Source: Heterodontus francisci (Eukaryota). Taken from it: a DNA stretch of 64,000 nucleotides. Shown one piece after another: positions 23,869 through 60,162 of the stretch. The position numbers and the translations under genes were made by a program. The notes under the pieces are model-generated. The model searched no databases, was not told where the DNA came from, and worked only from the letters and a program-made list of their open reading frames with translations. The DNA lies in assembly GCF_036365525.1 (NCBI RefSeq), contig NC_090416.1:17270945-17334944 (forward strand). The letters run 5' to 3'. How positions within the stretch are numbered: position 1 is the first letter of the stretch; every line of letters begins with the position of its first letter.

Positions 23869-26800
23869 TCAGTACCGAGGCGGCATATATGGTCGTTTAG
23901 GAGCGGTGGAATAAGGAGGGCTTCCAAATGGCAGGCCAGGTCGTTTTCCACTTTGAAAAGATTCTCGAGGCCTGAAGGACCCTCTGAAGTCTCTCTGAAA
24001 GAATCTACCAGGACCACTGTAGTCTCGCTGGGGGGTATAGGAGTGCCCATAGTAATCTCTTGGCGACCTTTGCATTGGAGGCCTACTGGGTAAACCAAGG
24101 AAGTCTCTTGGAGGACATGGGAGTAAGCCAAGGAGCTCTCTTGGGGGTCCAGCTAATGGGCCAAGGAGGTCTCTTGGAGATCCAGGTAAAGGACCAAGCA
24201 CATCCTGTGGAGGATGGACAGGAGGTGGGCCAAGCTGATCCCTTGGAGGAGGGCCGGGAGGTGGGACGAGGTGATCCTGTGGAAGGGTGCCAGGAGGTGG
24301 TCCAAGAACATCCCGTGGAGGAGGACCAGGAGGAGGACCAGGAGGGGGAATAGGAGGGGGACCAGGAGGTGGACCAAGGTGATCCCGTGGAGGAGGGCCA
24401 GGAGGTGGCACAGGGGGACCAGGAGGAGGTCCAAGATGATCCAGTGGTGGGGGACCTAGGTGATCCCTTGGAGGGGGACCAGGTGGTAGACCAGGACCAA
24501 AGCGGTCAGGCGGAGGCCCAGAGGGTGGCCCAATGTGGTCAACTGGGGTTCCAGGTGGGGGTGGTGGTGGTCCAACGTGATCCCGTGGTGGCCCAATCTG
24601 CTCATGGGTAGAACCAGGAGGTGGACCACTGTGGTCTTGAGGAGGACCAGGGAATGAACCATGGTCTCTTAGAGAGCCTGATGAGACACCCATATGGTCC
24701 TGTGGTGGAACAGGAGGGCCTAAATGGTCGTGAGAAACAGGAGGCGGACCTGGCGGTAGACCTATGTGATCTCGTGGGGGTACAGGTGGAAGTCCAATAT
24801 CCCGCAAGGGAACAGGAGGAGGTCCGATGTGATCTTGTGGGGGGCATGGGGCAAGTACGTGATCTGGAGGAGGACCGGGTGGGTGACCAATGTGGTCTCG
24901 GGTTGGAACAGGGGGTGGCCCAATATGATCGTGCAGCGAACCAGGAGGAAGTCCAATCTGTTGAGTCTGCCTTTCAAAGGGGGTGTTAAAGCTGTTGGAT
25001 CTAAAGCTACTTGAAGTGTCTGGGAACTGGAGTCTGTGCTCTTCAAACTGGTTTCTAAAACTGGGAGGAACACCTTGATTCATCTCAGAAACATCAATAG
25101 AGGATGATTCATCTTCAAAGTCTGAAATGCTTTCACTCTGCTCAAACCAACTGCTCCTAGACCCCCCTCTCCCATTGCCTCTGCCTGACCCTCGGCTGGA
25201 GTCCAGGGTCTGAATGGGTTCCCCAAACATCAGCCTCCCAGCTGATGGGGTGCTGGAACCTAGTGTCTCTATGGGGGCTCCTTTTTCCTCTATGCTCTCA
25301 GTTAAATCGGATGTAGATATACGAGTCTCTATACAATGCTGTTCTTCATCCGCATTCTCCGCAATCCCAGATTGTCCAAAAACTGATAGGTTCCCTTTCT
25401 CACTCATGCCTCCTGTTGGAGCAGGACTAATGGGGCTTTCTAAAGGTTTGTCATCAGTAGGTCTACGAGAGGCATTTTTTAACATGTTTTTAAACTCTAT
25501 GGTTGAAGTGGCAGAGACAGGAGAGCCTAGCGATACAGCTTTTTCTATGCTGGTGACAGATGTGCGGCTAAAAGAAACAGGTGCAGCACTTTGTGATGAG
25601 GAAGGCTGTCGGGAAGGGACAGAACACAGAGAGTCAGAAAATACTTTCTGAAGTTGCCCTGTGTGAGATAAATCTGAGTAAGAGGGCTGTAATATGATGT
25701 TATTAGACTCTGAGCGGAAGAACTGATTGTTTTGACCAGGTGAAGGCAGGTTCTCATGCTCAACTCCCTGATCATCCCCATACCCTCTGCTACTATTTGA
25801 CCTACTGCCATAAGCTTCCTGCTTTTTAAGGATGGATTTCATGGGCTTGGAGAACACAGACTTTAGCCGACTGTAACTGGTGGAAATGGACTGGTATTCA
25901 TTGGGACTCTGTATCTGATCTGGTTTATTTGATTTGAGAATCGATTTCGGGGGCTGCTTCATCAAATTGGAAACGGAGGAAGGAGGTGGTCCAGCGTAGT
26001 CAAAGTCGGTGCAGGATTCACCTGGATAAAATTGTTCTTCAGGGGAATCTCTGTGGGGAGAAGATTCTTCCCACATCTCTGAGGATTTGAAGGAGGAAGG
26101 AAATGGACCCCTTCCACGGTTGTATGAAGCGTCGCTTTGGTAAGAAGGCACTGTATTGGAAATCTCTGAGTAACCAGAATCTCTGTTTTGTGGGAGTGAA
26201 AGTGGGGGGGAGATTGTGCTGCTGGTTGAAGAGGATGGTGGGCTGATTAGCTTAGACAGTAAGGACATTGGATCAATTGTGCCTGTGGTTGCTGGTTTGT
26301 CCATTATTTCATCCTGGGTCGGAGTTCCACCTCGCTCATCTCTGACTGGCGTGCCATCCTGGTTGTCTAGTATAGTACTGCTGGGATTACGATTTCCTTC
26401 TGATGGCTGCAGGAGACTCTTAGAGTCACTGGAGCCCAAATTGCTCAGAAGAGGGATATTAAGATCTAAAGCCTTAAATCCTGGATTAACCTTCAGAAAG
26501 TTGTGAATTTTCAACTCCAAACTTGATGGTGAGGATGGCTCTGCCTCTGTTTCAGCTGTGACTGCCTCAGTGGACGCCTTCTGACTGGTCAAGCTTTCCC
26601 TTGATCCAGAGGTGGTACTGCGAAGGGAGCTTTCGAGCACTGTAGTGTTGGCTGGTGCCTTCAGGCTTGTGTTGGACAGAGCAGGACTATGGTTTACTGG
26701 GGCTGAGTTCACTGAAGAACCAGAGGAAACTTCTGATGCAGGTGAATTTGGAGAGCAACCAATAAGCCCTTGGATCAAAGACTGAGTGCTGGCATTAATA

Positions 26801-26924
26801 ATGGGAACATTTTTGTCTATTGGACTGGTGACGTTCGTCACTGCTGGGGTAGAAATGTTTGAAGTTGCACTGCTGGATGGGGCAGAAGTATTTCCTGTCA
26901 CACTCTGAAGCAACGACGAAAGAC
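23869..26924 (-). CDS. RPRD2: RPRD2 terminal coding exon 11 (Ser/Pro-rich disordered region; ends ...APKRPYMPPRY-stop)
   Basis: Within the 1024-aa ORF; acceptor tattag|GT at 26925-26926. Contains RPRD2-type motifs GLSSLLQSVTG, SLELKIHNFLK, DGTPVRDERGGTPTQDE, STIEFKNMLKNASR, EKGAPIETLG and C-terminal PPRY. Confidence 0.95.
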
Positions 26925-27329
26925 CTAATATCAGAGGAGACAAAAAAAAAAGTATTTCAATTCATTTTTTTTGTAGACCTATAAATTATTTTTAAACATT
27001 TCACTCTGGCTCCAGAAAAAATAACAGGCAACAGGTTAAAATTATGTTAAAAAAAAAATGACACTTTAATTGCCCTTTGTTACTTTTTTGCTGTTCATCT
27101 CAAAAACTTGCACTTATACAGTACCTTTACCTTACCATAGCAAAACCAGCCCAAAGTGCTTCATAAAAAGGGGAGAGGCCAGATTCTAAGGGGGAGTTGG
27201 GAAGGTTCTTGAAAGCTTTGAAGATGGGAAAAGATGTCAGGTGGTTTTGGAAGCTTTGATGGCTTCCCCAACAATGGGAGGATGGGTGGAAAGAGACAGC
27301 GGAAGGCTTTATACATAGCAGAGTCAAGT

Positions 27330-34079: not shown

Positions 34080-35165
34080 AAAATTGAAGCTTATGTTTGA
34101 ATTGAAGAAACATATAAAAAACAAAATCACAACTTATGATGGAATAAAATGATCTAGGGATGCAGGCCAACAAAAATCAGTAATGTAGGTCAGCAAAGCA
34201 ATTCAAAATATTGAAAAAGCACTGGGATTTATTTCAAGCGGTATGGAATTCAATAGTAGCTATTTTAAACTTATGAAGGACCCTGGTCAGGCAGCGCTAC
34301 TGCGCACAGTCCTAGTCTCCATCTATAAAAAGGACACAGAACACAGGGCGGCACAGTGGCGCAGTGGTTAGCACTGCAGCCTCACAGTTCCAGGGACCCG
34401 GGTTAGATTCTGGGTACTGCCTGTGCGGAGTTTGCAAGTTCTCCCTGTAACTGCGTGGGTTTTCTCCGGGTGCTCCGGTTTCCTCCCACCGCCAAAGACT
34501 TGCAGGTTGATAGGTAAATTGGCCATTGTAAATTGCCCCTAGTGTAGGTAGGTGATAGGGATTATGGGATTACTGCAGGGTTAGTATAAATGGGGGGTTG
34601 TTGGTCGGTACAGACCCGGTGGGCCTGTTTCAGTGCTGTATCTCTAAATAAATAAAAATAAATAAGAAGCACTGGAGAAAGTGCAAAAAAAAAAGATTTA
34701 CAAGGGTGGTGCCAGAACTCAGATATTACAGCTATTGAGAAAGATTGAACAGGTTGGGGCTTTTTCCTTGAGAAAAGAGACTTGGAGATGGCCCAATAGA
34801 GGTCTTTAAAATTATGAATGGGGTGGAGAGAGAAGATGAGCAGAGAATGTTTCCACTTGTGGGAGAATCCAAGACCATAATCCAAGGGGCCATAAATACC
34901 AGATAGTTACTAATAAATCCAATTGGGAGATCATGAGAAATCTAATTTACTGAGGGAGTGGTCAGTATATGGAAATCACTACCACAAGAAGTGGCTGAGG
35001 CAAATAGATTAGATGTTTTTTGAAGGACACTAGACAAGAATAGGAGAGAAAAGGGAACGGAAAACTATGCTGAAAAGCTGAGATAAGGTAGATGGAATTG
35101 GAGGAGTATATACACCAGCACAGACTAACTGGGTCGAATGGCCTGATTCTGTGCTGTGATTCTTT
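34080..35165 (+). mobile_element. CR1-like LINE 3' fragment interrupted by a V-SINE
   Basis: Degenerate RT C-terminus and CR1 tail. Confidence 0.72.
34346..34665 (+). mobile_element. V-SINE (HE1-like) nested inside a CR1 LINE fragment
   Basis: Same family as 31767-32115, with a (TAAA)n tail; CR1 sequence resumes on both sides. Confidence 0.85.
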
Positions 35166-35206
35166 GATTAGGAAGCACAACTTTCCGCTATTTCCAAGCC
35201 TGATAC

Positions 35207-35495
35207 CTATGATGTTTGCTGCTCCAATAGCTTCGTCATCTGAAAGCTCCATGTCCTCAACGTCACAGTTATCACCAGAGGCCTCAGGCGTTGGCGGCTC
35301 TGGACTCTCCTCCACCTTCTTTGACTCCGTAACAACCTCCTCTACTGGCCGAACGGGAGACTCGGAACCAGTTGGCGAAGGAGCGTCCATGCTGGGAGAT
35401 GGAATGGGAGACTCGTCTGGATCTGGAAGTGTGGTTTTCAGTTGGTCCAGCTTCTTCTTCAGGTTGTTGACTCTGTTGGCAAATGTCTTGTACGC
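35207..35495 (-). CDS. RPRD2: RPRD2 exon 8, AYKTFANRVNNLKKKLDQLKTTLPDPDESPIPSPSMDAPSPTGSESP...VEDMELSDDEAIGAANII
   Basis: 289 bp, cag| acceptor and |gtatc donor. End of the CREPT/RPRD coiled coil plus SPSMDAPSPTGSESP and EDMELSD motifs. Confidence 0.93.
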
Positions 35496-35628
35496 CTGAG
35501 ATAATAGCCAATAGCAACAGTGATAAAATCAAACAAATCAAACACACAGAATTACACCTTCCCTTTTGTTATCTCTTGCCCCAGCCTGCTTTATTTGTTT
35601 AAAACCTATTACATTTCTAACCTTTGCC

Positions 35629-37655: not shown

Positions 37656-37865
37656 TCTTAAATGTAAGAAACTCTGGAATAAGGCAGAACTAACTTTTGC
37701 ATAAAGGGTAATAGAGATGTGGGATAATTTACCAGGGAAGAACAATGGAGCAGACAGTAAATGGCCTCAAGAGGTAATTAGACATGTTTCAGGGAATTTG
37801 CTTTTACAGGGAATTCCCTAGCAGTACACAGAACTTTGAGTTTGAAGTAAGGTAAAGACACTTAC

Positions 37866-38041
37866 ATTTGCTACGATCTTCACCTCCTTGTACTGAGCCT
37901 CGTAAAATATCTCTGCATTCTCAAGAGCCTCGATCAGCGGTGGAGTCTTTTTCACCTCCCTCTCGAGCTCAGCGCAGAAATCTTCCAACTTAGAGCTGGA
38001 TTCCTCAAAGTCTTTGGAAAATCGTTTGCCTCCAGCACGAT
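37866..38041 (-). CDS. RPRD2: RPRD2 exon 7, (D)RAGGKRFSKDFEESSSKLEDFCAELEREVKKTPPLIEALENAEIFYEAQYKEVKIVAN
   Basis: 176 bp, tag| acceptor and |gtaagt donor; CREPT domain. Confidence 0.93.
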
Positions 38042-38815
38042 CTACAAAGAGAGAATGAAGCATTCCTACAAGTGAGCGTTCCGGTCCATACAAATTACCA
38101 GTGGGGGGCATGGAGCAGGGAATCACAGCAAGGTTAAAAGAAAAAGGACTGGATGAACTATTCTTAGAAAAGGAAATACAGGGCTAATAATTCCAGAATT
38201 ACTGTAAGGAAACCAACTGGCGGTTCATAAGGGTAGACTAGATGGACGAATGGTCTTTTCCCGCCGAAACATTGAGTTATAAAATCTCATTGATGCATTC
38301 AAGATGATTCCAAAAAACACGAGTGAAATTCAGGCAGAGTTTACAGATTCCAAGTAATTATATATGCAATTCTAAATAAATTAGATCTAAAATCTTGCAA
38401 AAGGCCACATTTATTGTCCACAACCTGCAGTTACAATTATGACTTTCAGTCATGCATATATTACCCTTTTTTCATGTTTCACACCATTATAACTGACTTC
38501 ACTTCAGCAGTACTGTGCTGACTGTGAATCACTCTGGAAAGTCCTGAGGTGATGTAAAGTGCTATTCTCCAAATTCTTTAAAAGGTCACAAAGGCAATGT
38601 AATTTCAGGTTTCAGCCACTGGGTACCACCACATCCCACTGTATCCTGACAGTGAGCAATGCCACAGGAGACAACTCATTATATATGAAAATCGAAAAAG
38701 GCACACATGTAGGTAGTAAGACAAGTAAGGTTCAAACCTTCTCCTCATAACGAATGTTCAACAAGTATTCAATAGATTAATTTACTGCAGCTGCGTGTAC
38801 ATTTCTGTGCTTTAC

Positions 38816-38942
38816 CTTTCAATCGTTTCAGCGTCTCTGTGCTGCAGACATCCACACGGAGGGCCCCAAGCTGCTTTTCTTTGAATTCTCGCTCATCCTC
38901 AGCTTGTTTGTATGACCCTAACTGATCAATCAGTGCCTGTGG
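38816..38942 (-). CDS. RPRD2: RPRD2 exon 6, PQALIDQLGSYKQAEDEREFKEKQLGALRVDVCSTETLKRLK
   Basis: 127 bp, cag| acceptor and |gtaaag donor; RVDVCSTETLK motif. Confidence 0.93.
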
Positions 38943-39174
38943 CTGCAGTGGAAAAAAGAGCATACGGTCAGGCTCTGAAAATTGTAATTAAACTCCCAGT
39001 TTCCCAGAACCAGTCCCTAGGGTCCTTTACGAGCAAGGCATACAGTAATGTACACTTTGTACACTAAATATAACGTGACAGTGAAATTAAATACAAGCAA
39101 AGAAAAATTACAAAGATAATAAACGCATGCTCCTGACAAAAGAAGGTGCCAAGTTTATTTTTTTTCCCTATCTG

Positions 39175-46480: not shown

Positions 46481-47971
46481 AACTGAGAAAATTTTGAGAA
46501 CACATCAGTTTAGCATAATGCGCAATGAACAAACAGGTGACCACAGTCCAATAGAAGATACTTGATGCTGATATTTCACCCCTGAATTTTCAAGGTATTT
46601 ACCAGTTCAATACAGGAAAAAAGGTGCTTTCATAATTCATTTCTATTATCTGCTGGCTGCAGGATTCAGGCTGGTCCTTATCTTCTTGAATCATAGAACT
46701 CATAGCACAGAAAAAGACCATTCAGCTCATGGTACACCATCTGTCATATTGTGCAGGTGTCTTTAACAGGAACTTTCTCAATCTTCATTATACAATTGGC
46801 AAGTTTGGGGTGGACATATACAGACATGCAAAAGCAAACAAATTTCTCAAATGGAATTTAAATAAACATGGCTTATTGAGATAACATTTAAACATATTGC
46901 AATATTGTAAGCCTCATCACGTAACAGCTTATTACATAAACCAGTCCTCATCTATTCCCCAAGTACATTTAATTGCCCTTTTATAGATATGAAATGAATT
47001 TATAAATAGATTTTCTTTAAGTGAACATTTAATGAAATCTTGTAGGTCTCTAGTCTACCAGAACCCCAAATTTCTTCATCAGAAAAGTGACTCCACTTTA
47101 AAAATACTTCATCAGCTGTAAAGCAGGCAGGGACAGCCCGAGGTCTTGAAAGGCACTACGCAAGTGCAAGCTTGCTTTCTTGGGCTTGGACTGTTCAATG
47201 TGTCAACTGGTTTACGTCATGACACAAGAACATGGATGCGACGGACTAGCAGTCAAATTCATAGCCACGAATGCAGATTGCTGAAAGGGTCATACTACCA
47301 ACTCAAAGCACCCCTGCATGCAGACAAGTTTTTTGGAGGGAACAGCCTGCATGGAAGCTGAAATCAGTGAAGTACATGAACACAGTAGGCCAGCAGTACA
47401 TCCCCCTTTAAGATCCAGAACGTGCAGTAATTTAAAAGCACTAGTATCCAGCTTTCAATGCCCCTCTTCAGACAGAGCTAATGCTTGAAAAGTCAAAAAC
47501 TATCACTGGATATTTTTCACACATCATTACACTTCACTGAAAACCCAGTGACATGGTTAGATTGATAATATAGATTTCAACTTGACATGTAGAAGAAAGG
47601 CAGCAATTAAAGATGCAAGAAAACAGCTTTCAAGAAACACTGTTGAATTTTACCTAGTTCAGTTCCTCATTAAATTACCATTCCCAAGATACTTAACCTT
47701 CCCAAACACCTAGGATTCTAATTTTAAACTAACTGAACTAATCCCATTCTGACTTAAGCTCTTGAAAACAAGTCATTTTTGCTCTCTGTAGTAATACAAT
47801 CTACAATCTCTACTTGATTTCATTAAATTCAATTGACAGATTCCAGCTTACTAGAGTCAAATAAAAACTGCCATCACTACAGTCAAGAAACAGAAATGAC
47901 AGCAAAATGTATATTCAATGAACAGACTGGTTTAAAATATTCAGTAATTTATCCAAATGTAGTGCTTCAAA

Positions 47972-48971
47972 GGGGATGCTGCTAATGATGTTATGGAGTT
48001 GTTCATAGAACTGGTCTTTAGCTTCAGGTGCGGAACAGAGTGTTGGAGCATAGATGCTGAGTAGGTGTACTGGACCAGAGGTGGTGAGCAGTCGGATGGA
48101 CAGTATGCGTTCCGAGCCATTTGAGGGAGGCTCTATCATGCTGAGCAAGGAGTTTCTGATGGCGAAGCCCACTCCATGCTGTCTTGGTTCTTCAGGATCC
48201 CTGCCCTGCCAGAAGAAGGTGTAGTCTTGCTCTGCTAGAGAGCCACTCGCGGGGAGGCGAGTCTCCTGAAGTGCTGCAATGTCCACATTGAGTCTACTGA
48301 GCTCGTTGTTAATGATGGCAGTCTTCCGAGAATCGTTGATTTGTGTAAGGTCTTCCGACAGGCCAGGACACATAGTTCTGACGTTCCAGCTTGCAAAGCG
48401 AAGGGCTGGTACCTTCTTTCCTTTTTTCATGTTGTTTGGTGCGGTGTATCAGTCCACCTTTCGGGCAATGACCCTGAGCTCCAAGCACCCATTGAAGCAG
48501 GCAGACTGTGGCGGGACAGAACCTTATTGACCGGGGGCTGCCCGGTTTGAGGCGGGCGGTAGCTGTCCAGTGAGGTGCAATGACCTCTCCCACCGACAAA
48601 GGCAACCCGTGGCGCCCAGTTTCTACGCCAATTTATCTGGACTTATAACCCGTAACTGCTGCCTTCCGTGTTGTTTCAGTCGCTGTGAGGCAACTATGGA
48701 GTGACCTCTCCATGGCGCATGCCTGGGCAAATTTATGGAGGTTGAGAGTTGCCCAGTCGTCAAAACCCCCCTCTCGGCCTTTCTGGTGGGGTCCAAAGGA
48801 GTGCAGGACACGACGTTTGGCACCAGTATGGCTGCAGGAACTGCCGGAAACATGCCAAAGGTGACACATGACCGCCTACGGGGTTCCGCTCCGGATTTTC
48901 TGTTAGGGTTTACTCCCTTAGCCTTGGTCTCTCCCGAGACGCCCACAAGGCAGTGGGGTTGTTGGGGCCCC
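47972..48971 (-). mobile_element. Inverted 5' part of the RTE element: 5' UTR plus ORF start (ATG at 48430) encoding the N-terminal APE endonuclease
   Basis: ORF 47915..48430 has APE motifs SWNVRT, DIAALQETR, HGVGFAI and SIYAPT. Its end, FYEQLHNIISSIP, is repeated at the start of the sense part. Confidence 0.92.
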
Positions 48972-48994
48972 TACACAGGTGTAGGATGGTGCCG

Positions 48995-49192
48995 GTGGGA
49001 GGAGGGGATGCAAGGGGGAGGGGTAGAGGGAGGGGGTGGGTGCAGGGGAAGGGGGTGCGGGGTGAAGATGGTGCGAGGGGGGGGCGGGCTGGGACGGGGT
49101 TGTGAGGGGGTGAGCTGAGAGGGTGGAGCAGGGAAGGGGACGGGGGTGGGGGGGTGTGGAAGGGGGGTAAAGGGGGGGGGGAGGGGGGGTGG
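48995..49192 (+). repeat. G-rich low-complexity tract (many G4-G9 runs; G-quadruplex-capable)
   Basis: Directly visible; lies inside the DNA captured by the RTE insertion. Confidence 0.85.
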
Positions 49193-49868
49193 AATCTGGT
49201 GCAGGTAATAAGCCATTTCCTCAGTGCCCACCATCGACGTCCGGAAAGCTCATCCACGTCCTTCGGGAGGTGAAGCATCATTTGGCAGACTTAGAGGTGA
49301 TTACATTTGCTAAGGGTTTTTTTTTTGCAGTGGTTTAAATAAAGGCATGCAGCATTGCCGACAGTGCGCTGCAGATGCTCTCCGAGCCATCTCCCGCGGG
49401 CGCTTTGAAGTTGCGGCCGGGGGGGCCGTTCGTGGATGTTTTGGGTGTTCGGGGCACCTTTTCACAGGACTTCTCTCGGGTCCCGCGGCTCCTTCTTCAC
49501 CTCAATGGACTTACCGCATGCCGTGGCTGCAGACACTCTGGACTGTGAAGACAGCAGGATCGGAGATTAAAGTATCGGCAGCTGTTCTCGTCAGTTTCAT
49601 CCGGATCAATTTCATTGAGAAAACAAAGAGCAGGTGTGGCTGGGGGAGGGCAGTGGGCCCAGGTAACATACACTAAACTAACTGTTAACTTTTAGATAGG
49701 GCTAAAATGAACTGATTTAAAGAGCCAGGGGAATTTAAACAGTTTAAGAGGGCAGATTGGGGGAGAAAACGTTAGGGATGGGAGCAGATGGCCATGGATA
49801 GAGTTGAACAGCAAGGGAGCTTCCTAGGGAGCTTCCAGCCCAGGAGCCATCTTGAACCCTTTGGAGTT

Positions 49869-52705
49869 GTTCTATGAACAACTCCATAACATCATTAGCA
49901 GCATCCCCAACACCGAACACCTATTCCTGCTGGGGGACTTTAATGCCAGGGTTGGGGCCGACCATGACTCATGGCCCTCCTGCCTTGGGCGCTATGGCGT
50001 TGGAAGGATGAATGAGAACGGGCAGAGACTGCTTGAGTTGTGTACCTATCATAACCTCTGCATCACCAACTCGTTCTTTCACACTAAACCCTGTCACCAG
50101 GTTTCATGGAGGCACCCAAGATCACGTCGTTGGCACCAGCTAGACCTCATTGTCACAAGGCGAGCCGCCTTAAACAGTGTTCAAATCACACGCAGCTTCC
50201 ACAGTGCGGACTGCGACACCGACCACTCCCTGGTGTGCAGCAAGGTTAGACTCAGACCAAAGAAGTTGCATCATTCCAAGCAGAAGGGCCACCCGCGCAT
50301 CAACACGAGCAGAATTTCTCACCCACAGCTGTTACAAAAATTTCTAAATTCACTTGTAACAGCCCTTCAAAACACTCCCACAGGGGATGCTGAGACCAAG
50401 TGGGCCCACATCAGAGATGCCATCTATGAGTCAGCTTTGACCACCTACGGCAAAAGTGCGAAGAGAAATGCAGACTGGTTTCAATCTCATAATGAAGAGC
50501 TGGAACCTGTCATAGCCGCTAAGCGCATTGCACTTTTGAACTACAAGAAAGCCCCCAGCGATTTAACATCCGCAGCACTTAAAGCAGCCAGAAGTACTGC
50601 ACAAAGAACAGCTAGGCGTTGCGCAAACGACTACTGGCAACACCTATGCAGTCATATTCAGCTGGCCTCAGACACCGGAAACATCAGAGGAATGTATGAT
50701 GGCATGAAGAGAGCTCTTGGGCCAACCATCAAGAAGATCACCCCCCTCAAATCTAAATCGGGGGACATAATCACTGACCAACGCAAACAGATGGACCGCT
50801 GGGTTGAGCACTACCTAGAACTGTACTCCAGGGAGAATGCTGTCACTGAGACTGCCCTCAATGCAGCCCAGCCTCTACCAGTCATGGATGAGCTGGACAT
50901 ACAGCCAACCAAATCGGAACTCAGTGATGCCATTGATTCCCTAGCCAGCGGAAAAGCCCCTGGGAAGGACAGCATTACCCCTGAAATAATCAAGAGTGCC
51001 AAGCCTGCTATACTCTCAGCACTACATGAACTGCTATGCCTGTGCTGAGACGAGGGAGCAGTACCCCAGGACATGCGCGATGCCAACATCATCACCCTCT
51101 ATAAAAACAAAAGGTGACCGCGGTGACTGCAACAACTACCGTGGAATCTCCCTGCTCAGCATAGTGGGGAAAGTCTTTGCTCGAGTCGCTCTGAACAGGC
51201 TCCAGAAGCTGGCCGAGCGCGTCTACCCTGAGGCACAGTGTGGCTTTCGTGCAGAGAGATCGACTATTGACATGCTGTTCTCCCTTCGTCAGATACAGGA
51301 GAAATGCCGTGAACAACAGATGCCCCTCTACATTGCTTTCATTGATCTCACCAAAGCCTTTGACCTCGTCAGCAGACGTGGTCTCTTCAGACTACTAGAA
51401 AAGATCGGATGTCCACCAAAGCTACTAAGTATCATCACCTCATTCCATGACAATATGAAAGGCACAATTCAACATGGTGGCTCCTCATCAGAGCCCTTTC
51501 CTATCCTGAGTGGTGTGAAACAGGGCTGTGTTCTCGCACCCACACTTTTTGGGATTTTCTTCTCCCTGCTGCTTTCACATGCGTTCAAATCCTCTGAAGA
51601 AGGAATTTTCCTCCACACAAGATCAGGGGGCAGGTTGTTCAACCTTGCCCGTCTAAGAGCGAAGTCCAAAGTACGGAAAGTCCTCATCAGAGAACTCCTC
51701 TTTGCTGACGATGCTGCTTTAACATCTCACACTGAAGAATGCCTGCAGAGTCTCATCGACAGGTTTGCGTCTGCCTGCAATGAATTTGGCCTAACCATCA
51801 GCCTCAAGAAAACGAACATCATGGGGCAGGATGTCAGAAATGCTCCATCCATCAATATTGGCGACCACGCTCTGGAAGTGGTTCAAGAGTTCACCTACCT
51901 AGGCTCAACTATCACCAGTAAATTGTCTCTAGATGCAGAAATCAACAAGCGCATGGGTAAGGCTTCCACTGCTATGTTCAGACTGGCCAAGAGAGTGTGG
52001 GAAAATGGCGCACTGACACGGAACACAAAAGTCCGAGTGTATCAGGCCTGTGTCCTCAGTACCTTGCTCTACGGCAGCGAGGCCTGGACAACGTATGCCA
52101 GCCAAGAGCGACGTCTCAATTCATTCCATCTTCGCTGCCTTCGGAGAATACTTGGCATCAGGTGGCAGGACTATATCTCCAACACAGAAGTCCTTGAAGC
52201 GGCCAACATCCCCAGCTTATACACACTACTGAGTCAGCGGCGCTTGAGATGGCTTGGCCATGTGAGCCGCATGGAAGATGGCAGGATCCCCAAAGACACA
52301 TTGTACAGCGAGCTCGCCACTGGTATCAGACCCACCGGCCGTCCATGTCTCCGTTATAAAGACGTCTGCAAACGCGACATGAAATCGTGTGACATTGATC
52401 ACAAGTCGTGGGAGTCAGTTGCCAGCATTCGCCAGAGCTGGCGGGCAGCCATAAAGACAGGGCTAAATTGTGGCGAGTCGAAGAGACTTAGTAGTTGGCA
52501 GGAAAAAAGACAGAGGCGCAAGGGGAGAGCCAACTGTGCAACAGCCCCGACAAACAAATTTCTCTGCAGCACCTGTGGAAGAGCCTGTCACTCCAGAATT
52601 GGCCTTTATAGCCACTCCAGGCGCTGCTTCACAAACCACTGACCACCTCCAGGCGCGTATCCATTGTCTCTCGAGATAAGGAGGCCCAAAAGAAGAAAGA
52701 AAAGA
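49869..52705 (+). pseudogene. Sense 3' part of the RTE ORF (endonuclease C-terminus, RT, C-terminal Cys/His finger), disrupted by one nonsense codon and one +1 frameshift
   Basis: Motifs LLGDFNARVG, TDHSLV, GKAPGKD, NYRGISLL, FIDLTKAFD, GVKQGCVLAP, LFADD, YLGS, and CSTCGRACHSRIGLYSH. TGA at 51046-51048 (expected Trp codon), extra A in the A-run at ~51103-51112, stop at 52640-52642. Confidence 0.92.
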
Positions 52706-54484
52706 AGTGCTTCAAAGTTCAACTGTGCATGGCAGCTGGATTAACATACATAGTTGGTCTCGCCTCACTCCAATTTTCTCTCCTAAAGGTGCTGATTCAT
52801 ACCAAGCTACATGTGCACAGAAAGCATAGAAATTACACCTTAACCAACTGGCCATTCTTAAACTGCGAGTCTAGATGGCAAGTGCTGACAGGCCACTCAC
52901 CATGGTCACATTTGAGCACAATATTATTTTCAACTAATGTTTACATACACACACTTTTCCAGCAAGAAGTCATTGGAAAATGATCACCAGCGTTTTATGC
53001 AAATCCTTCCTATCCCAGGGTGGTGAGGTCAAGTGTAGTATCCAACTGCTACGCCAGCCAAGATCAGCAAACACTGAGAATCAAACTTGGACCCTTAGGT
53101 TTGTCCTGTTGCATACAAAGTAATAACTGGTGAGAAAGTGTGTGTGTAGGGGGGGGTGGAGAACATCAGTCACTAACTTTCTATCCAAAGACCCTTACTT
53201 GAGCCAGCGACCTTCTCAAGAGTAATAAGGGATGGGCAATAAATACAGAGCTTGCCAGTGATGCTCACATCCCAAGAATGAAGGAAAAAAATGGCATACC
53301 AGGGACTGTACCCGTCAGATTTCAACATCTTCAGGAGAGGAGGCAAGAAAACTGACAAAAGGTAAAAAAAAAACTAAACAGCACTATATAATGTTACCAC
53401 TGTACTCCAAGGGCATGCAAACTTAAAGCATGCCCACAGGATGCAAAATAACCTCAAACAAACAAATAGCCTTTGCACAGGATATCTTGTAAACTCCAAA
53501 TGCCAATCCACTCTACTCTTTATAATGTCCCAATCGGTTATGGTTTCCAATATCCAGTATAACAACAGTTCTACTCACTTCGTAAGTTCAGAAACACTTC
53601 ACGTTTTACAAGTTGCCCGAGAAAACAAATTAATTCCAAATAACACCCTTCTCTAATTTCTCAGCAATTAACTGCACTGTCCAGGGCTATGCTAAGCTGT
53701 ACAAACCAAGGAGGCCCCAACTTCAATCCCTTATCTCTGCTGAGTTAGATTATCAGACAGTAGGAATGCTACAATTGGCATCAGCATCTCTGCATTTATT
53801 TTGTTTTTAGGATGTAGGTAACACTGGCAATACCTCATTTATTATCTGTAGATGCCTTGAGGTAGTGGGCCATCTTCCTAAATTGCCGCAGTCTTTGTAA
53901 TGATGGCTCCCTTCCGAGAACCCAGCATATTGACTCATTTACAATGAAGGAATAGCAACGGTTGGCCAAGTTAGGATGGTGTGAAATTTGGAGGGGAATT
54001 TAGAGGTGATGGTGTTCCTCAGTGGTGGAGGCTGAGCTGCAAGGAAATGCAATGGAAGTGACCTTGGCGAGTTGCTGCAGGGCATGCTGTAGATAGTAAA
54101 TACTGCAGTCACAGTGTGCTGGTGAGAGGCAGCAGATTCTGAATCCAGTGGCAGGGACAGCATTATGCAGAAGAGAGACAAAACATTCAAGATTCCTGCT
54201 ACCAATCCCTATCCAGTCAGTGATGGTGGAAAGTGAACAAATTTAGGTCTGTCTGTGAAGCCCCCGATGGTTAAATAACTTGCCAACATTAACTGCTTAG
54301 ACTGATTCACATGAATGAAGGTGACTTGGGTGAAGTACTAAAGAGTGGTCGGTACCTCAAACTGTACACCAGCAACACTCACCACCTTCATGAGGTGAGA
54401 GAAAACAGGAAAAAAACCTTACAAGAAAATAATCTATAGACTAAAGATGCCTCCCTTCACATAGCAAAATGAATCAAACAACAT

Positions 54485-55128: not shown

Positions 55129-55258
55129 CTCACCAACGTGCCTGCTTCAACCAGAACCTCTGAAAAAGCATCTCGAAAAATAATCGCGTTCTTCCTTTTA
55201 CAGTTCTGAATAACATCGTTGGCAACATAGAAAAGGTTCAGTCGATGAGGGATTGAAG
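55129..55258 (-). CDS. RPRD2: RPRD2 exon 2, [42 protein letters not shown](R)
   Basis: 130 bp, tag| acceptor and |gtaggt donor; CID signature L.LFY.ANDVIQN. Exon 1 was not found and is presumably beyond 64000. Confidence 0.94.
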
Positions 55259-58200
55259 CTAAGAGAAAGCAAAAAGCTTTATTAATTTGTGAAAGTACCT
55301 GTAAGGAGGCAGATTAGCAATACAATTCTGCAATTTACCAAAAACAAGTACTCTACAATGCACCAGCACAAGAGTGAAACATGAAAGGCCTGTGGCATAA
55401 GTAATAAATGTCTGGTGGTTGCAGAACATTTTCAATCTTAGAATACACGCACAAAATTCATTCCGTTTATGCCTATAAGAGGCTTTGTTTTTTGGCTGCA
55501 TTTGCTGATAACGCAATCACTAGGTGGCGCAGTACTTGCCTCATGCACAAACGTCACTGTCTGCGACGCTTTTGGCAGCTGCCAGTAGCAAAGATGGTGC
55601 TGCTCAATTTATCACAAAAACAAATCAAACCAAAATGGCTACAGTAGCTGCAATCGCCACCTCCATCCCACCCTTAACAGTACCCTGCTCCCTCCTGCCA
55701 TTGCGCTTCTCTTCGCTGCTGCCTCCCATGCCCATCTGCTCGGCGCTTGCTCCCCGCCTCGGCCACTCGCTCCCCATACCACCCCCCCACCTTCACCTGT
55801 GGGCCCTCACTCGCGGCCTCGCCACTTCCTTCCCTCTGCTCTGCCTCTGCTCCCCGCTCCCTCCAGATTCTGCTCCTTGCAATGGGCTGGTTAATGAATT
55901 TTATTGACAATTATTTCAGGACACAAACCCAAATTTTAAACCAATGAACATTTTAAAAAGAGATTTCTAACATTTTGGAAGTTGGAACAGATAAATCCTG
56001 GGAGCTTGTGTTCAGCATGAACATCAGCAGGGAGCTGCTTCTGTGCTGTAATAAGAGCCAAATCCACAACTTGATCCAGGATCGCTTCAGTGAACTTTGT
56101 GTTTACACATGACCCAATATAAAACCAACTAGCTTGGTTTTTCGTCTAGTTGTTGTTTCATAAACCTAAATCCAACAGACATTTTGTTTTAATATGAGAA
56201 TTTTAAATGGATCTGGCTGGAAATGGAATCCTTGGGTCATTACTAAGTCTGTGAAACACGCTGGGACCTCTCCAATCTCTACCAGACCAAGAGAGTAGCT
56301 TCGGAATAGCTGCATGTGCGGGATTGTGCGCGCAATTCAACAGAATCCGTGGCCTCGCCACTTCTTCCCCCTCGGCCACTTGCTCAATGCTCCCTCCCCT
56401 CCCTATCTTGTCACCTGCTCTTCCCTGCTTCCCCGATGCGGGGAGCAGAACCGGCAGGGAGCAGGGGCAGAGGGGAGGAATTGGCGAGGTTGCAAGCGAG
56501 GGGCCCACAAGTGGGGGGGGGAAGCGAAGCAGCCGAGTGGGGAGATGTGGCTAGGCCGTGAGCAACGAGCGTGCGCAAATTAGTCCTGGCAAGCCATGTG
56601 CTGATGTAGGCTGCGCATGCGCAGCATCATACTGACAGCAAGAGTCTGTTCTGCACAGGTGCGAAGCTGGGAGCGCTCTGATGACGTTGGCGCTGGGCTG
56701 CATTTTCAAGGAGTCACTTTTGTTGTTTGATGTGATTTCAAGCTCAAGATTTGCAGTAGAGCCATAACAAAGCTCTGGTGCTTTGCTACACAAACAAATT
56801 TTCACAATTAACTCTCAGCGCTCCCACCAACAATATGATGAAAATTGCACCTGTCTTTCAGGAAGATTCTGGTTTGTGTCTCTCATGGGCACAGAGGCGC
56901 TTATATGCGCAATCCATGGGTGACAATCACAGCCACAATACATTCACAGGAATTACTGTGCAAGCTGCTCAATTTAACTAATTACATTCTTTCCCTTAGC
57001 TAGCTATGTATTAATTTAAATTTACAAGTGCTTGCCATTTTAGACTTCCATTTGTGTTTTGGGCTCACTCTTCCCACGAATCAGAGAGTTAATGCATTCC
57101 ACAAGGAAAGGCTTCAAAATCCCACAACACATTTCATAGAATCATGCAGCAGAGGAAGAGGCTATTCGGCCCATCCTGCCTGTGCATGGTCTTCTGAAAA
57201 GTTATCCAATTAGCCCCACTCCCTTGTTCTTTGCTCATAGCCCTGCAAATTTCCCCCTTTCAAGTAATTATCCAATTCCCTTCTGAAAGTTATTGTTGAA
57301 TCTGCTTCCACTACCCTTTCAGTGCATTCCCAATCATAACTCGTTTCAGTTTTAGCTTTAAGGCTTTGTTACCTATCCCAAATCCTCCCATCTGACTTTG
57401 GGCATGATTCTTCTGGCCAGATCACCATTGATTTTAAATGCGCACGTGACAAAAAGCTATTGCTGCAAAAGATGCACTTATTATAGCTCTAATGTTCAGC
57501 AGCTGCAAAGCACCATTAACCCCAGATAAAGAAATGGAAAACTGTGGCATACTCAATAAATGAAAATGAAAAATAGGACACCTGTGTGGAACCCACTTAA
57601 AAGCAGGCTGCTTTTCTAGATTTTTTAAAAATTGAAGACTCCGTCCAATGTAAAGGGGGCAAAACAACTGAAATCCAAGCCCTACCACAATGACCACTCT
57701 AAGGCATGAGCAAGACTGACAGTCACCTACTTGGAAACAGCTTTGAATTCCAATTCTAACAGCTTCAGTATAAGAGAGAGACCATAAGATTACAATGTGA
57801 ACTGGACCGATCAACCAGCAACTGGAATTTTAAAACACCACGCTCAAGTCACCAGCTGTAAACCAGAGGAGTAGCAACCACCATCACTCAAACTAAAAGC
57901 AATTAGTTATTGCAATCTCTTTAAAGCTAGTTAAATGATTGAGGTATTTGTATTAAATTAAACCTTTTGTTCCCTAATTCCTTTTTAAAATATTTTCCTT
58001 CCCTTTTAGCTGCAGCTCAGTATACAATAAGCAACTGCTTGCCTGTGGAGGTTGGAAGGGTTGAGGAAGACAGAGAGGGGAACAGTTGAGAACAGTTTTA
58101 AAAGAAAACTGGAAGCAGCAGGGAGGAGGAGAGAGAATCTACAGCCTAACTATGTAAACCACAAACTAAAAATCTATGATCCATCAGTAATTGCAGGACT

Positions 58201-59400: not shown

Positions 59401-60162
59401 GCTTTTGGGCTTCTATTCATAATAATTCATGGCTACAGGTTGCTGTGTTCTGTGTTTGTTGTTGTTCCCTCTCCTTTTCATGCTGCCTGGCAAAAGGCGG
59501 CAAGTAACGTCTTAAGAAGGCAGGGCTTCCATGCAAGTGAAAGGGCACAATTAAAATTGAAGTCAAATAAAATTTCCTATAGTTTAGTTTGCTTTTTGTA
59601 GAAGCATTTCTACAATTTTTATTTCCGAAGAAGGGTCACTGACCCGAAACGTTAACCCTGCTTCTCTTTTCACAGATGCTGACAGACCTGCTGAGTGGTT
59701 CCAGCATTTCTTGTTTTTATTCCATTCCCAGACTGTGCTGCTACAGCATTATTTGACATAATCCAAAAGTACTAAAGCAATATTACTCATTAATTTTTCG
59801 GCAAGGACCAGAGTCGCAACCAATAAACAATATCTTGGGTCAAGTCCCACTCAGAAATGAAGCAACACTCCATTAGGAGAGATGGGTTTTAGGCCTGCAC
59901 CTGCGATTTTCCACACCATGAGATCCTGATTTAAATGTCACTGTGGGTAGTTGCTAAGCACCTTCCACAAAAAGCAAACTAAACTATAGGAAATTTTATT
60001 TGACTTCAATTTTAATTGTGCCCTTTCACTTGCATGGAAGCCCTGCCTTAAGACGTTACTTGCCTTCTTTTGCCAGGCAGCATGAAAAGGAGAGGGAACA
60101 ACAACAAACACAGAACACAGCAACCTGCAGCCATGAATTATTATGAATAGAAGCCCAAAGGC
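59401..60162. repeat. ~200-bp inverted duplication (arms 59401-59604 and 59962-60162, 357-bp spacer)
   Basis: The arms are reverse complements apart from about five substitutions and one 3-nt indel, read by eye. Confidence 0.92.
59622..59721 (+). mobile_element. Short Penelope terminal element with variant hammerhead motif
   Basis: Near-identical to 36296-36395. Confidence 0.72.

Follow-up and report, generated by a model that had tools for sequence, protein, structure and literature searches.

A full-length RTE-type LINE of Heterodontus francisci with an inverted 5' part between intact TSDs, probably made by twin priming on a single RNA

In L1, twin priming leaves a TSD, an inverted 5' part, a sense 3' part, a tail and a second TSD, with discrete TSDs and breakpoints close to each other, and 30.9% of L1 copies are inverted (PMC2912911). 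Outside mammalian L1 and its host cells, 5' inversion is regarded as all but absent (PMC4245944). In that study of cultured cells, inversions came from human L1 when placed in human cells, the sole exception being one zebrafish Nimb-2 insert; they are tied there to L1 features and host factors, an overhang of at least 10 nt is proposed to be needed, and no RTE element was among those tested, as far as the accessible text goes. For RTE elements, inversions have no mention in the accessible text of PMC13295347 and one, in a reference title, in that of PMC6007223, and in the corresponding parts of PMC5389967 and PMC2718515 the terms inversion or twin priming occur in the references only. Our literature search found no account of 5' inversions in RTE elements. 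In 2008, Ichiyanagi and Okada reportedly examined vertebrate RTE junctions, and they may already have some.

We analysed a stretch of 64,000 nt of the H. francisci genome (hereafter, the window), in which a full-length, 4.7-kb, single-ORF RTE-type LINE occupies positions 47961-52717. By comparison within the window sequence, the 12-bp TSD AGTGCTTCAAAG is found both at 47961-47972 and at 52706-52717, and between the two copies the 5' 1.89 kb of the LINE is inverted, with 40 nt duplicated at the inversion point. As a ruler we used a natural uninverted full-length copy, L051, of 4,672 nt, and element positions are given as r. Relative to it, the window copy is made up, in order, of the TSD, r1888 to r1 inverted, a 3-nt 5' extension, 7 extra nt, r1849 to r4672 in sense, the tail and the TSD, which in outline is the layout that the original prediction had described.

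Precisely, the left TSD (plus strand) has its last base in common with the inverted piece and is present as a single copy in the empty allele. A T run lies 11-13 nt upstream of it (47948-47950, plus strand), position -1 is T and position +1 is A; this is the Tn-TA type of target signature found in the target profile of the family and known from Bov-B (PMC13295347). The inverted part, which would be the product of the second primer, extends on the minus strand over 47972-49861 in the alignment to L051. It contains the first 153 codons of the ORF, i.e. the front of the APE endonuclease (47972-48430; PF03372, E 3e-5), and a 1.4-kb 5' leader with a C-rich tract (48431-49861), without Pfam or Rfam match and contiguous in uninverted copies. 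After the 7-nt junction insert (49862-49868, plus strand), the sense part r1849-r4672 (49869-52693, plus strand) carries the rest of the endonuclease and the RT (matches to PF14529 and PF00078), a C-terminal C2H2-like motif and the 3' UTR, followed by an A/G microsatellite-like tail (52694-52705) and by the right TSD, all on the plus strand. The outer copy of the internal duplication (47972-48011, minus strand) and the inner one (49869-49908, plus strand) are exact reverse complements at 40/40 positions, as predicted, and only these 40 of the 1,888 inverted nt are found in both parts, the other 1,848 being missing from the sense part. The three reading frames of the region are pieces of one endonuclease-RT protein, with the front on the minus strand and the remainder on the plus strand.

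The original prediction had left 48972-49861 open; the inversion is not confined to 47972-48971 and goes on to 49861, since 48972-49861 is the 5' leader of the element. Searches of the genome returned copies 98-100% identical to both halves of the inverted region, and in most of them the halves are contiguous and oriented as the 3' part, so that we considered 48972-49861 as the element's own leader and rejected its reading as a foreign repeat. The C15 copy, once a candidate for a second inverted copy, was also rejected, being an uninverted full-length copy.

Copies of the family were located by pattern searches of the 6.0-Gb genome, and the exact pattern counts were 29,067 for the 3' end, 8,193 near r2370, 4,522 near r1460 and 1,001 for the 5' end: the family is large, young and mostly 5'-truncated. 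The uninverted L051 has a single ORF of 1,063 aa from r1430, with matches to PF03372/PF14529 and PF00078. An ORF1 was sought in the 5' leader, and none of 25 frames gave a Pfam match at E 0.5, the longest ATG frames being 52-105 aa and of low complexity; the same frames held no match to a host-gene fragment, for which a DNA search returned only family copies. No ribozyme or RNA family was found in the element, apart from one chance match (E 0.59). TSDs of the family have a median of 10-11 bp, start with A in 75/85 cases and show an excess of T at -12/-13 and at -1, and the 3' tails are A/G microsatellite-like and not poly(A).

Judged on these sequence features (single ORF, no ORF1, TSD length and target signature), the family fits the descriptions of the RTE clade given by PMC6007223 and PMC13295347, in agreement with the type of element predicted. 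Like the family, the Bov-B-like RTE elements of those papers have a single APE and RT ORF, no ORF1, a TSD peak at 10-12 bp, an A-rich microsatellite-like tail and a T run about 10 nt upstream of a TSD whose first letter is A; unlike it, they lack a 5' leader of 1.4 kb in which a putative YY1 motif resembles that of L1. As regards L1, a search for an ORF1, a poly(A) tail, a TSD of about 15 bp and similarity to L1 ORF2 found no sign of membership in that clade. The 120 homologues listed for the RT region, at 65-74% identity, include none that is named as an RTE; the structures of L1 and R2 lie at the same distance from the element (E about 1e-15), and the family may be RTE or RTEX. One member of the homologue cluster bears the name 'craniofacial development protein 2-like', a name that marks RTE endonucleases. 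The closest named homologues of the RT region (65-74% identity, among P0001-P0120) belong to coral, snail, sea star and lancelet, and a marine horizontal transfer of the family is possible on these similarities.

Several side observations concern the family. Its copies start with CAAGATGGC (49846-49854, minus strand, in the window copy), which matches 9 of 11 letters in the YY1 site that opens human L1 (motif as in PMC2912911), and their 5' ends are ragged a few bases upstream; this putative site could be part of a convergent internal promoter. Four copies (L318, L319, L335 and L338) have the 5' 1.2 kb fused to the last 60-210 nt (r1165-1258 to r4463-4615), with similar left breakpoints, and are internally deleted derivatives; they may form a non-autonomous subfamily or have arisen repeatedly by splicing or by template jumps. 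Very short copies of about 57 nt (L072, L080, L086, L117, L332, L338) start at r4615-4616, probably because this 3' tail is common to a SINE or another partner element. At the 5' junction of L273, 16 extra bases with TTAGGG repeats, a telomere-like filler, lie between the TSD and the element's 5' end. The TSDs of four independent copies (L252, L259, L281, L307) open with the same 11 letters, which suggests repeated insertion into one site of another repeat.

In its surroundings, the LINE is flanked by exons of a CID-domain gene on the minus strand (PF04818 match; exons at 23869-26961, 34962-35528, 37821-38987, where they lie near 38.0 and 38.9 kb, and 55131-55259), with a proline-rich repeat in the long last exon. 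By its sequence, this gene is probably RPRD2-like. The inversion puts the LINE leader in the direction of the host gene. A 204-nt inverted pair with 96% identity and a short repeat in between (59401-59604 and 59962-60162) is MITE-like.

The original prediction had proposed a search for the empty allele, and we found it in read-derived contigs, with one TSD and without 48972-49861, whose presence there would have refuted the prediction. Contigs from all four runs, made on one sample from which the assembly itself may derive, go from 47960 directly to 52706 and omit 4,745 nt, with 12 letters in common, and the left flank is single-copy in the genome (1 match). Hence the TSD is a true duplication and nothing stood between the repeats beforehand; as one TSD encloses both parts and the empty site holds one TSD, the insertion is a single event, as had been claimed. 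The site is likely polymorphic, with a heterozygous recent insertion at 47961-52717. The window copy has 7 internal differences in 4.7 kb from its nearest sibling, L051, including a stop and a frameshift, and its ORF is broken by the in-frame stop at 51046-51048 and by the frameshift near 51110: it is a very young and dead copy. Two of six differences checked are absent from all the other retrieved loci and one is present in a single other locus, and the 3-nt 5' extension recurs, among the retrieved loci, only in L051. The stretch at the inversion junction, 49861-49868, is bridged by no contig of the four runs (depth 0 in two runs, only a contig of another flank in the other two). Since only 62 joints were kept in the contigs against about 1,400 inversion junctions expected, most such junctions were lost and the missing contig counts neither way. 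Among the 15 joints listed, seven connect a coordinate in the inverted part with one in the sense part; they are inversion junctions of other copies, weak ones with short sides of 23-30 nt.

Inverted copies were also counted in the family, as the original prediction had proposed. We considered two cohorts in position order, from which alone the rates are taken and which both cover the first 52 Mb of one contig: 4/84 copies were 5'-inverted among the first 84 3'-end matches on contig C1, and 9/100 among the first 100 matches to the r2370 motif. Three inverted copies are in both cohorts, which leaves 10 distinct unselected ones, and inversions under about 20 nt are missed. About one in twenty of the sampled copies is flipped (about 5% overall, and 9% where the copy is long); in human and chimpanzee L1 the share is about 30% (PMC2912911). 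Extrapolated to the about 29,000 exact 3'-end matches, this gives roughly 1,400 inverted copies. In all lists there were 23 inverted-looking copies, 22 of them with a TSD, and 12 of the 22 had been picked as inverted or from best-score lists; an older inverted-looking copy without TSD (L094) was dropped from the inverted set, and L234 and L230 were rejected as 5' inversions. The geometry of twin priming that had been recognised in the window copy is thus the layout of 21 other TSD-bounded copies.

In all 22 inverted copies the TSDs are 9-14 bp long. With a finder that requires a perfect repeat and a purine tail, and on rows not fully de-duplicated, a TSD of at least 9 bp was found in 22/23 inverted-looking copies vs 49/127 truncated rows (Fisher p 2e-7), and in 14/31 full-length rows. 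TSDs start with A in 19/22 inverted and 44/49 truncated copies, and T is at -1 in 82% and 88%, respectively; by this common target signature, the same endonuclease made both classes. The outer breakpoint adjoins the TSD without any extra base in 20/22 inverted copies, the other two having 1 and 6 extra bases. Microhomology at this point, the second priming site, has a mean of 2.18 nt vs 0.69 nt in simulations in which the same target ends were joined to random element positions, and none of 20,000 simulations reached either the observed mean or the observed number of copies with at least 2 nt (14/22, with 3.6/22 expected by chance). The remark in the original prediction that only about 1 nt of microhomology is visible in the window copy is borne out by the alignment to L051, where the outer junction has 1 nt, a chance-level value; the worry that it raised is answered at the level of the family by the 14 copies, even though microhomology is absent in 5/22. 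Truncated copies carry microhomology of at least 2 nt too (26/71), so microhomology alone cannot separate RNA priming from DNA repair.

The two breakpoints lie at most 50 nt apart on the element in 16/22 copies (chance 1.9% each; p 1e-23), which points to one RNA molecule. In a sample biased to long copies, the inverted piece ends at the element's 5' end in 11/22, as expected for copying to an RNA end. At the inversion point there are 14/22 duplications (median 17.5 nt; 13 after subtracting ambiguous bases) and 8/22 deletions, and extra bases are found at the inner junction in 11/22. Three inverted copies (L312, L314, L310) have extra inserts or gaps within the inverted stretch or, where it meets the sense part, an insert derived from the element; these oddities are template jumps in the second synthesis.

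Compared with L1, the share of copies with at least 2 nt at the second priming site (64% here, 71% in L1; PMC11702581) and the median duplication (17.5 nt here, 22 nt in L1; tumour preprint bioRxiv 10.1101/2024.08.27.596794) are similar. The family differs in that it is RTE-type without ORF1, with TSDs of 9-14 bp vs about 15 bp in L1, and in that half of its inverted pieces, in a sample biased to long copies, reach the 5' end, unlike in L1. Duplications outnumber deletions (14/22; 8/10 in the unselected copies), whereas L1 has 17% duplications and 66% deletions in tumours and duplications in 10/32 cases in cells; for the unselected copies this gives p 8e-5 vs 283/1,403 (bioRxiv 10.1101/2024.08.27.596794) and Fisher p 0.01 vs 10/32 (PMC11702581), between sets that differ in methods and with small n. 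As for the non-L1 LINEs in cultured cells, the proposed overhang of at least 10 nt (PMC4245944) agrees with the 9-14-bp TSDs of the family. The mechanism is one known from L1; our search turned up no account of it for this clade, and one quantity, the duplication bias, sets the family apart from L1.

The 7 nt at 49862-49868 lengthen a natural 4-bp hairpin at the 3' end of the first cDNA to 11 bp, which in the folding test changes its energy from -1.0 to -10.6 kcal/mol (p 0.007 vs random element positions), and from these letters we read them as the result of the first cDNA end folding back on itself. In the whole genome, this hairpin pattern is present at two places. The second occurrence, L327 (G000:C33:35780400-35784700), is an uninverted copy, 98.3% like L051, truncated at the same r1849 and with the same hairpin-extending letters, of which 5-6 may belong to the TSD, so that its reading is ambiguous and it is weaker evidence. 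These two copies suggest that the r1849 end point may be set by the sequence and not by collision with the second cDNA, which would favour an order in which the first cDNA stalls and priming follows behind it, or a trimming back to the hairpin. A truncated copy, L246, has a fold-back insert of 17 nt. Snap-back as a general rule was rejected: of the 16 junction inserts with at least 4 nt, no more than three reach significance (window, L246, L264).

We consider it probable, with good though not complete confidence, that one full-length RTE-type LINE insertion, with the 5' 1.89 kb inverted between intact 12-bp TSDs, originated by twin priming on one RNA molecule. The element endonuclease would nick the two target strands about 11-12 nt apart, and the first DNA end would prime on the RNA tail and be copied to r1849. 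The second (top-strand) 3' end would then prime within the same RNA at r1888, 40 nt behind r1849, and be copied to the RNA 5' end; the free end of the first cDNA would fold back on the 4-bp hairpin and gain 7 nt, and finally the two cDNA ends would be joined and filled in. The weakest step is the order, a stall first and then re-priming just behind it, which the excess of short duplications suggests. Twin priming explains the retention of TSDs, the common endonuclease signature, the paired breakpoints, the microhomology and the inverted pieces that end at the RNA 5' end, and the enzyme extending the second primer would be the RTE reverse transcriptase itself rather than a repair polymerase of the host. 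Against twin priming stand the single nt of microhomology of the window copy, the five inverted copies with none, the microhomology of truncated copies and the read contigs, which show the empty form only.

Among the alternatives, a repair route has the most in its favour, but we hold it unlikely. Here synthesis of the first cDNA would have reached, or almost reached, its end, and before the ends were sealed a host polymerase or an end-joining pathway would have built the inverted front on DNA, the template being a cDNA that was broken or folded back, or the second strand. Fold-back synthesis at the window junction, in the truncated L246 and in L327, and the extra bases at half of the inner junctions would agree with it. 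R2 proteins in human cells are known to give snap-back with antisense junctions (PMC11371274), where, as in the 7-nt insert, the 3' end of the cDNA primes on itself before the 5' junction forms. Snap-back, however, copies sequence already in the first cDNA, and so accounts for 7 nt but not for the 1.89-kb inversion, of which 1,848/1,888 nt are absent from the sense part and were therefore not copied from the first cDNA. Moreover, a hairpin would link r1 to r1, not r1 to r1849, and TSD retention is higher in inverted than in truncated copies, the opposite of what end processing would give.

The remaining explanations are far less probable. Two RNAs or two head-to-head insertions, with an antisense 5' copy and a sense 3' copy from different molecules, have a precedent in L1 chimeras formed by twin priming on a second RNA (PMC4476161), and the large-gap copies L308, L310 and L307 could be of this kind; at the window locus, both parts lie within a single TSD, one sibling copy is their common closest match at 99.8-99.9%, and the breakpoints are only 40 nt apart, which makes this origin very improbable. 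We give the same slight weight to an assembly artefact, in which the inverted insertion would be absent from real DNA. The read contigs do show only the empty form, joined straight over the site in 4/4 runs, but a heterozygous insertion accounts for the empty allele, the same layout recurs in 21 other copies, and an artefact would have had to produce a 12-bp TSD that fits the empty site, together with the target signature of the family, a tail, the 3-nt 5' extension that one sibling shares, and private changes. Staggered breaks can leave inverted duplications, and a normal full-length copy could have been broken later by such cuts and its front flipped, L300 and L316 showing later rearrangement or nested inserts. 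This is the least credible account of all, since one breakpoint would have to hit the TSD boundary in 22/22 copies and there was little time for it, with 7 differences from the nearest sibling in 4.7 kb and the site still empty in read contigs.

The inversion at 47961-52717 is real, well-formed and part of a family-wide pattern. Returning to twin priming, a more tentative and rather doubtful generalisation is that it may be open to all LINE enzymes leaving an overhang of at least 10 nt, ORF1 being unneeded, and that in this RTE family it may be sequential: the first cDNA would stall and fray off the RNA, and the second DNA end would capture the RNA 5-45 nt behind the stall, hence the dominance of short duplications, the reverse of L1. 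Taken alone, the window copy is dead and, once the family is known, ordinary. The duplication bias is a testable difference between this RTE family and L1. If the reading is true, inversions in a young ORF1-less RTE family mean that neither ORF1 nor mammalian factors are required, and the inverted copies of the family, roughly 1,400 by extrapolation, are a large natural data set on second-strand cutting and priming, the least understood step of LINE insertion.
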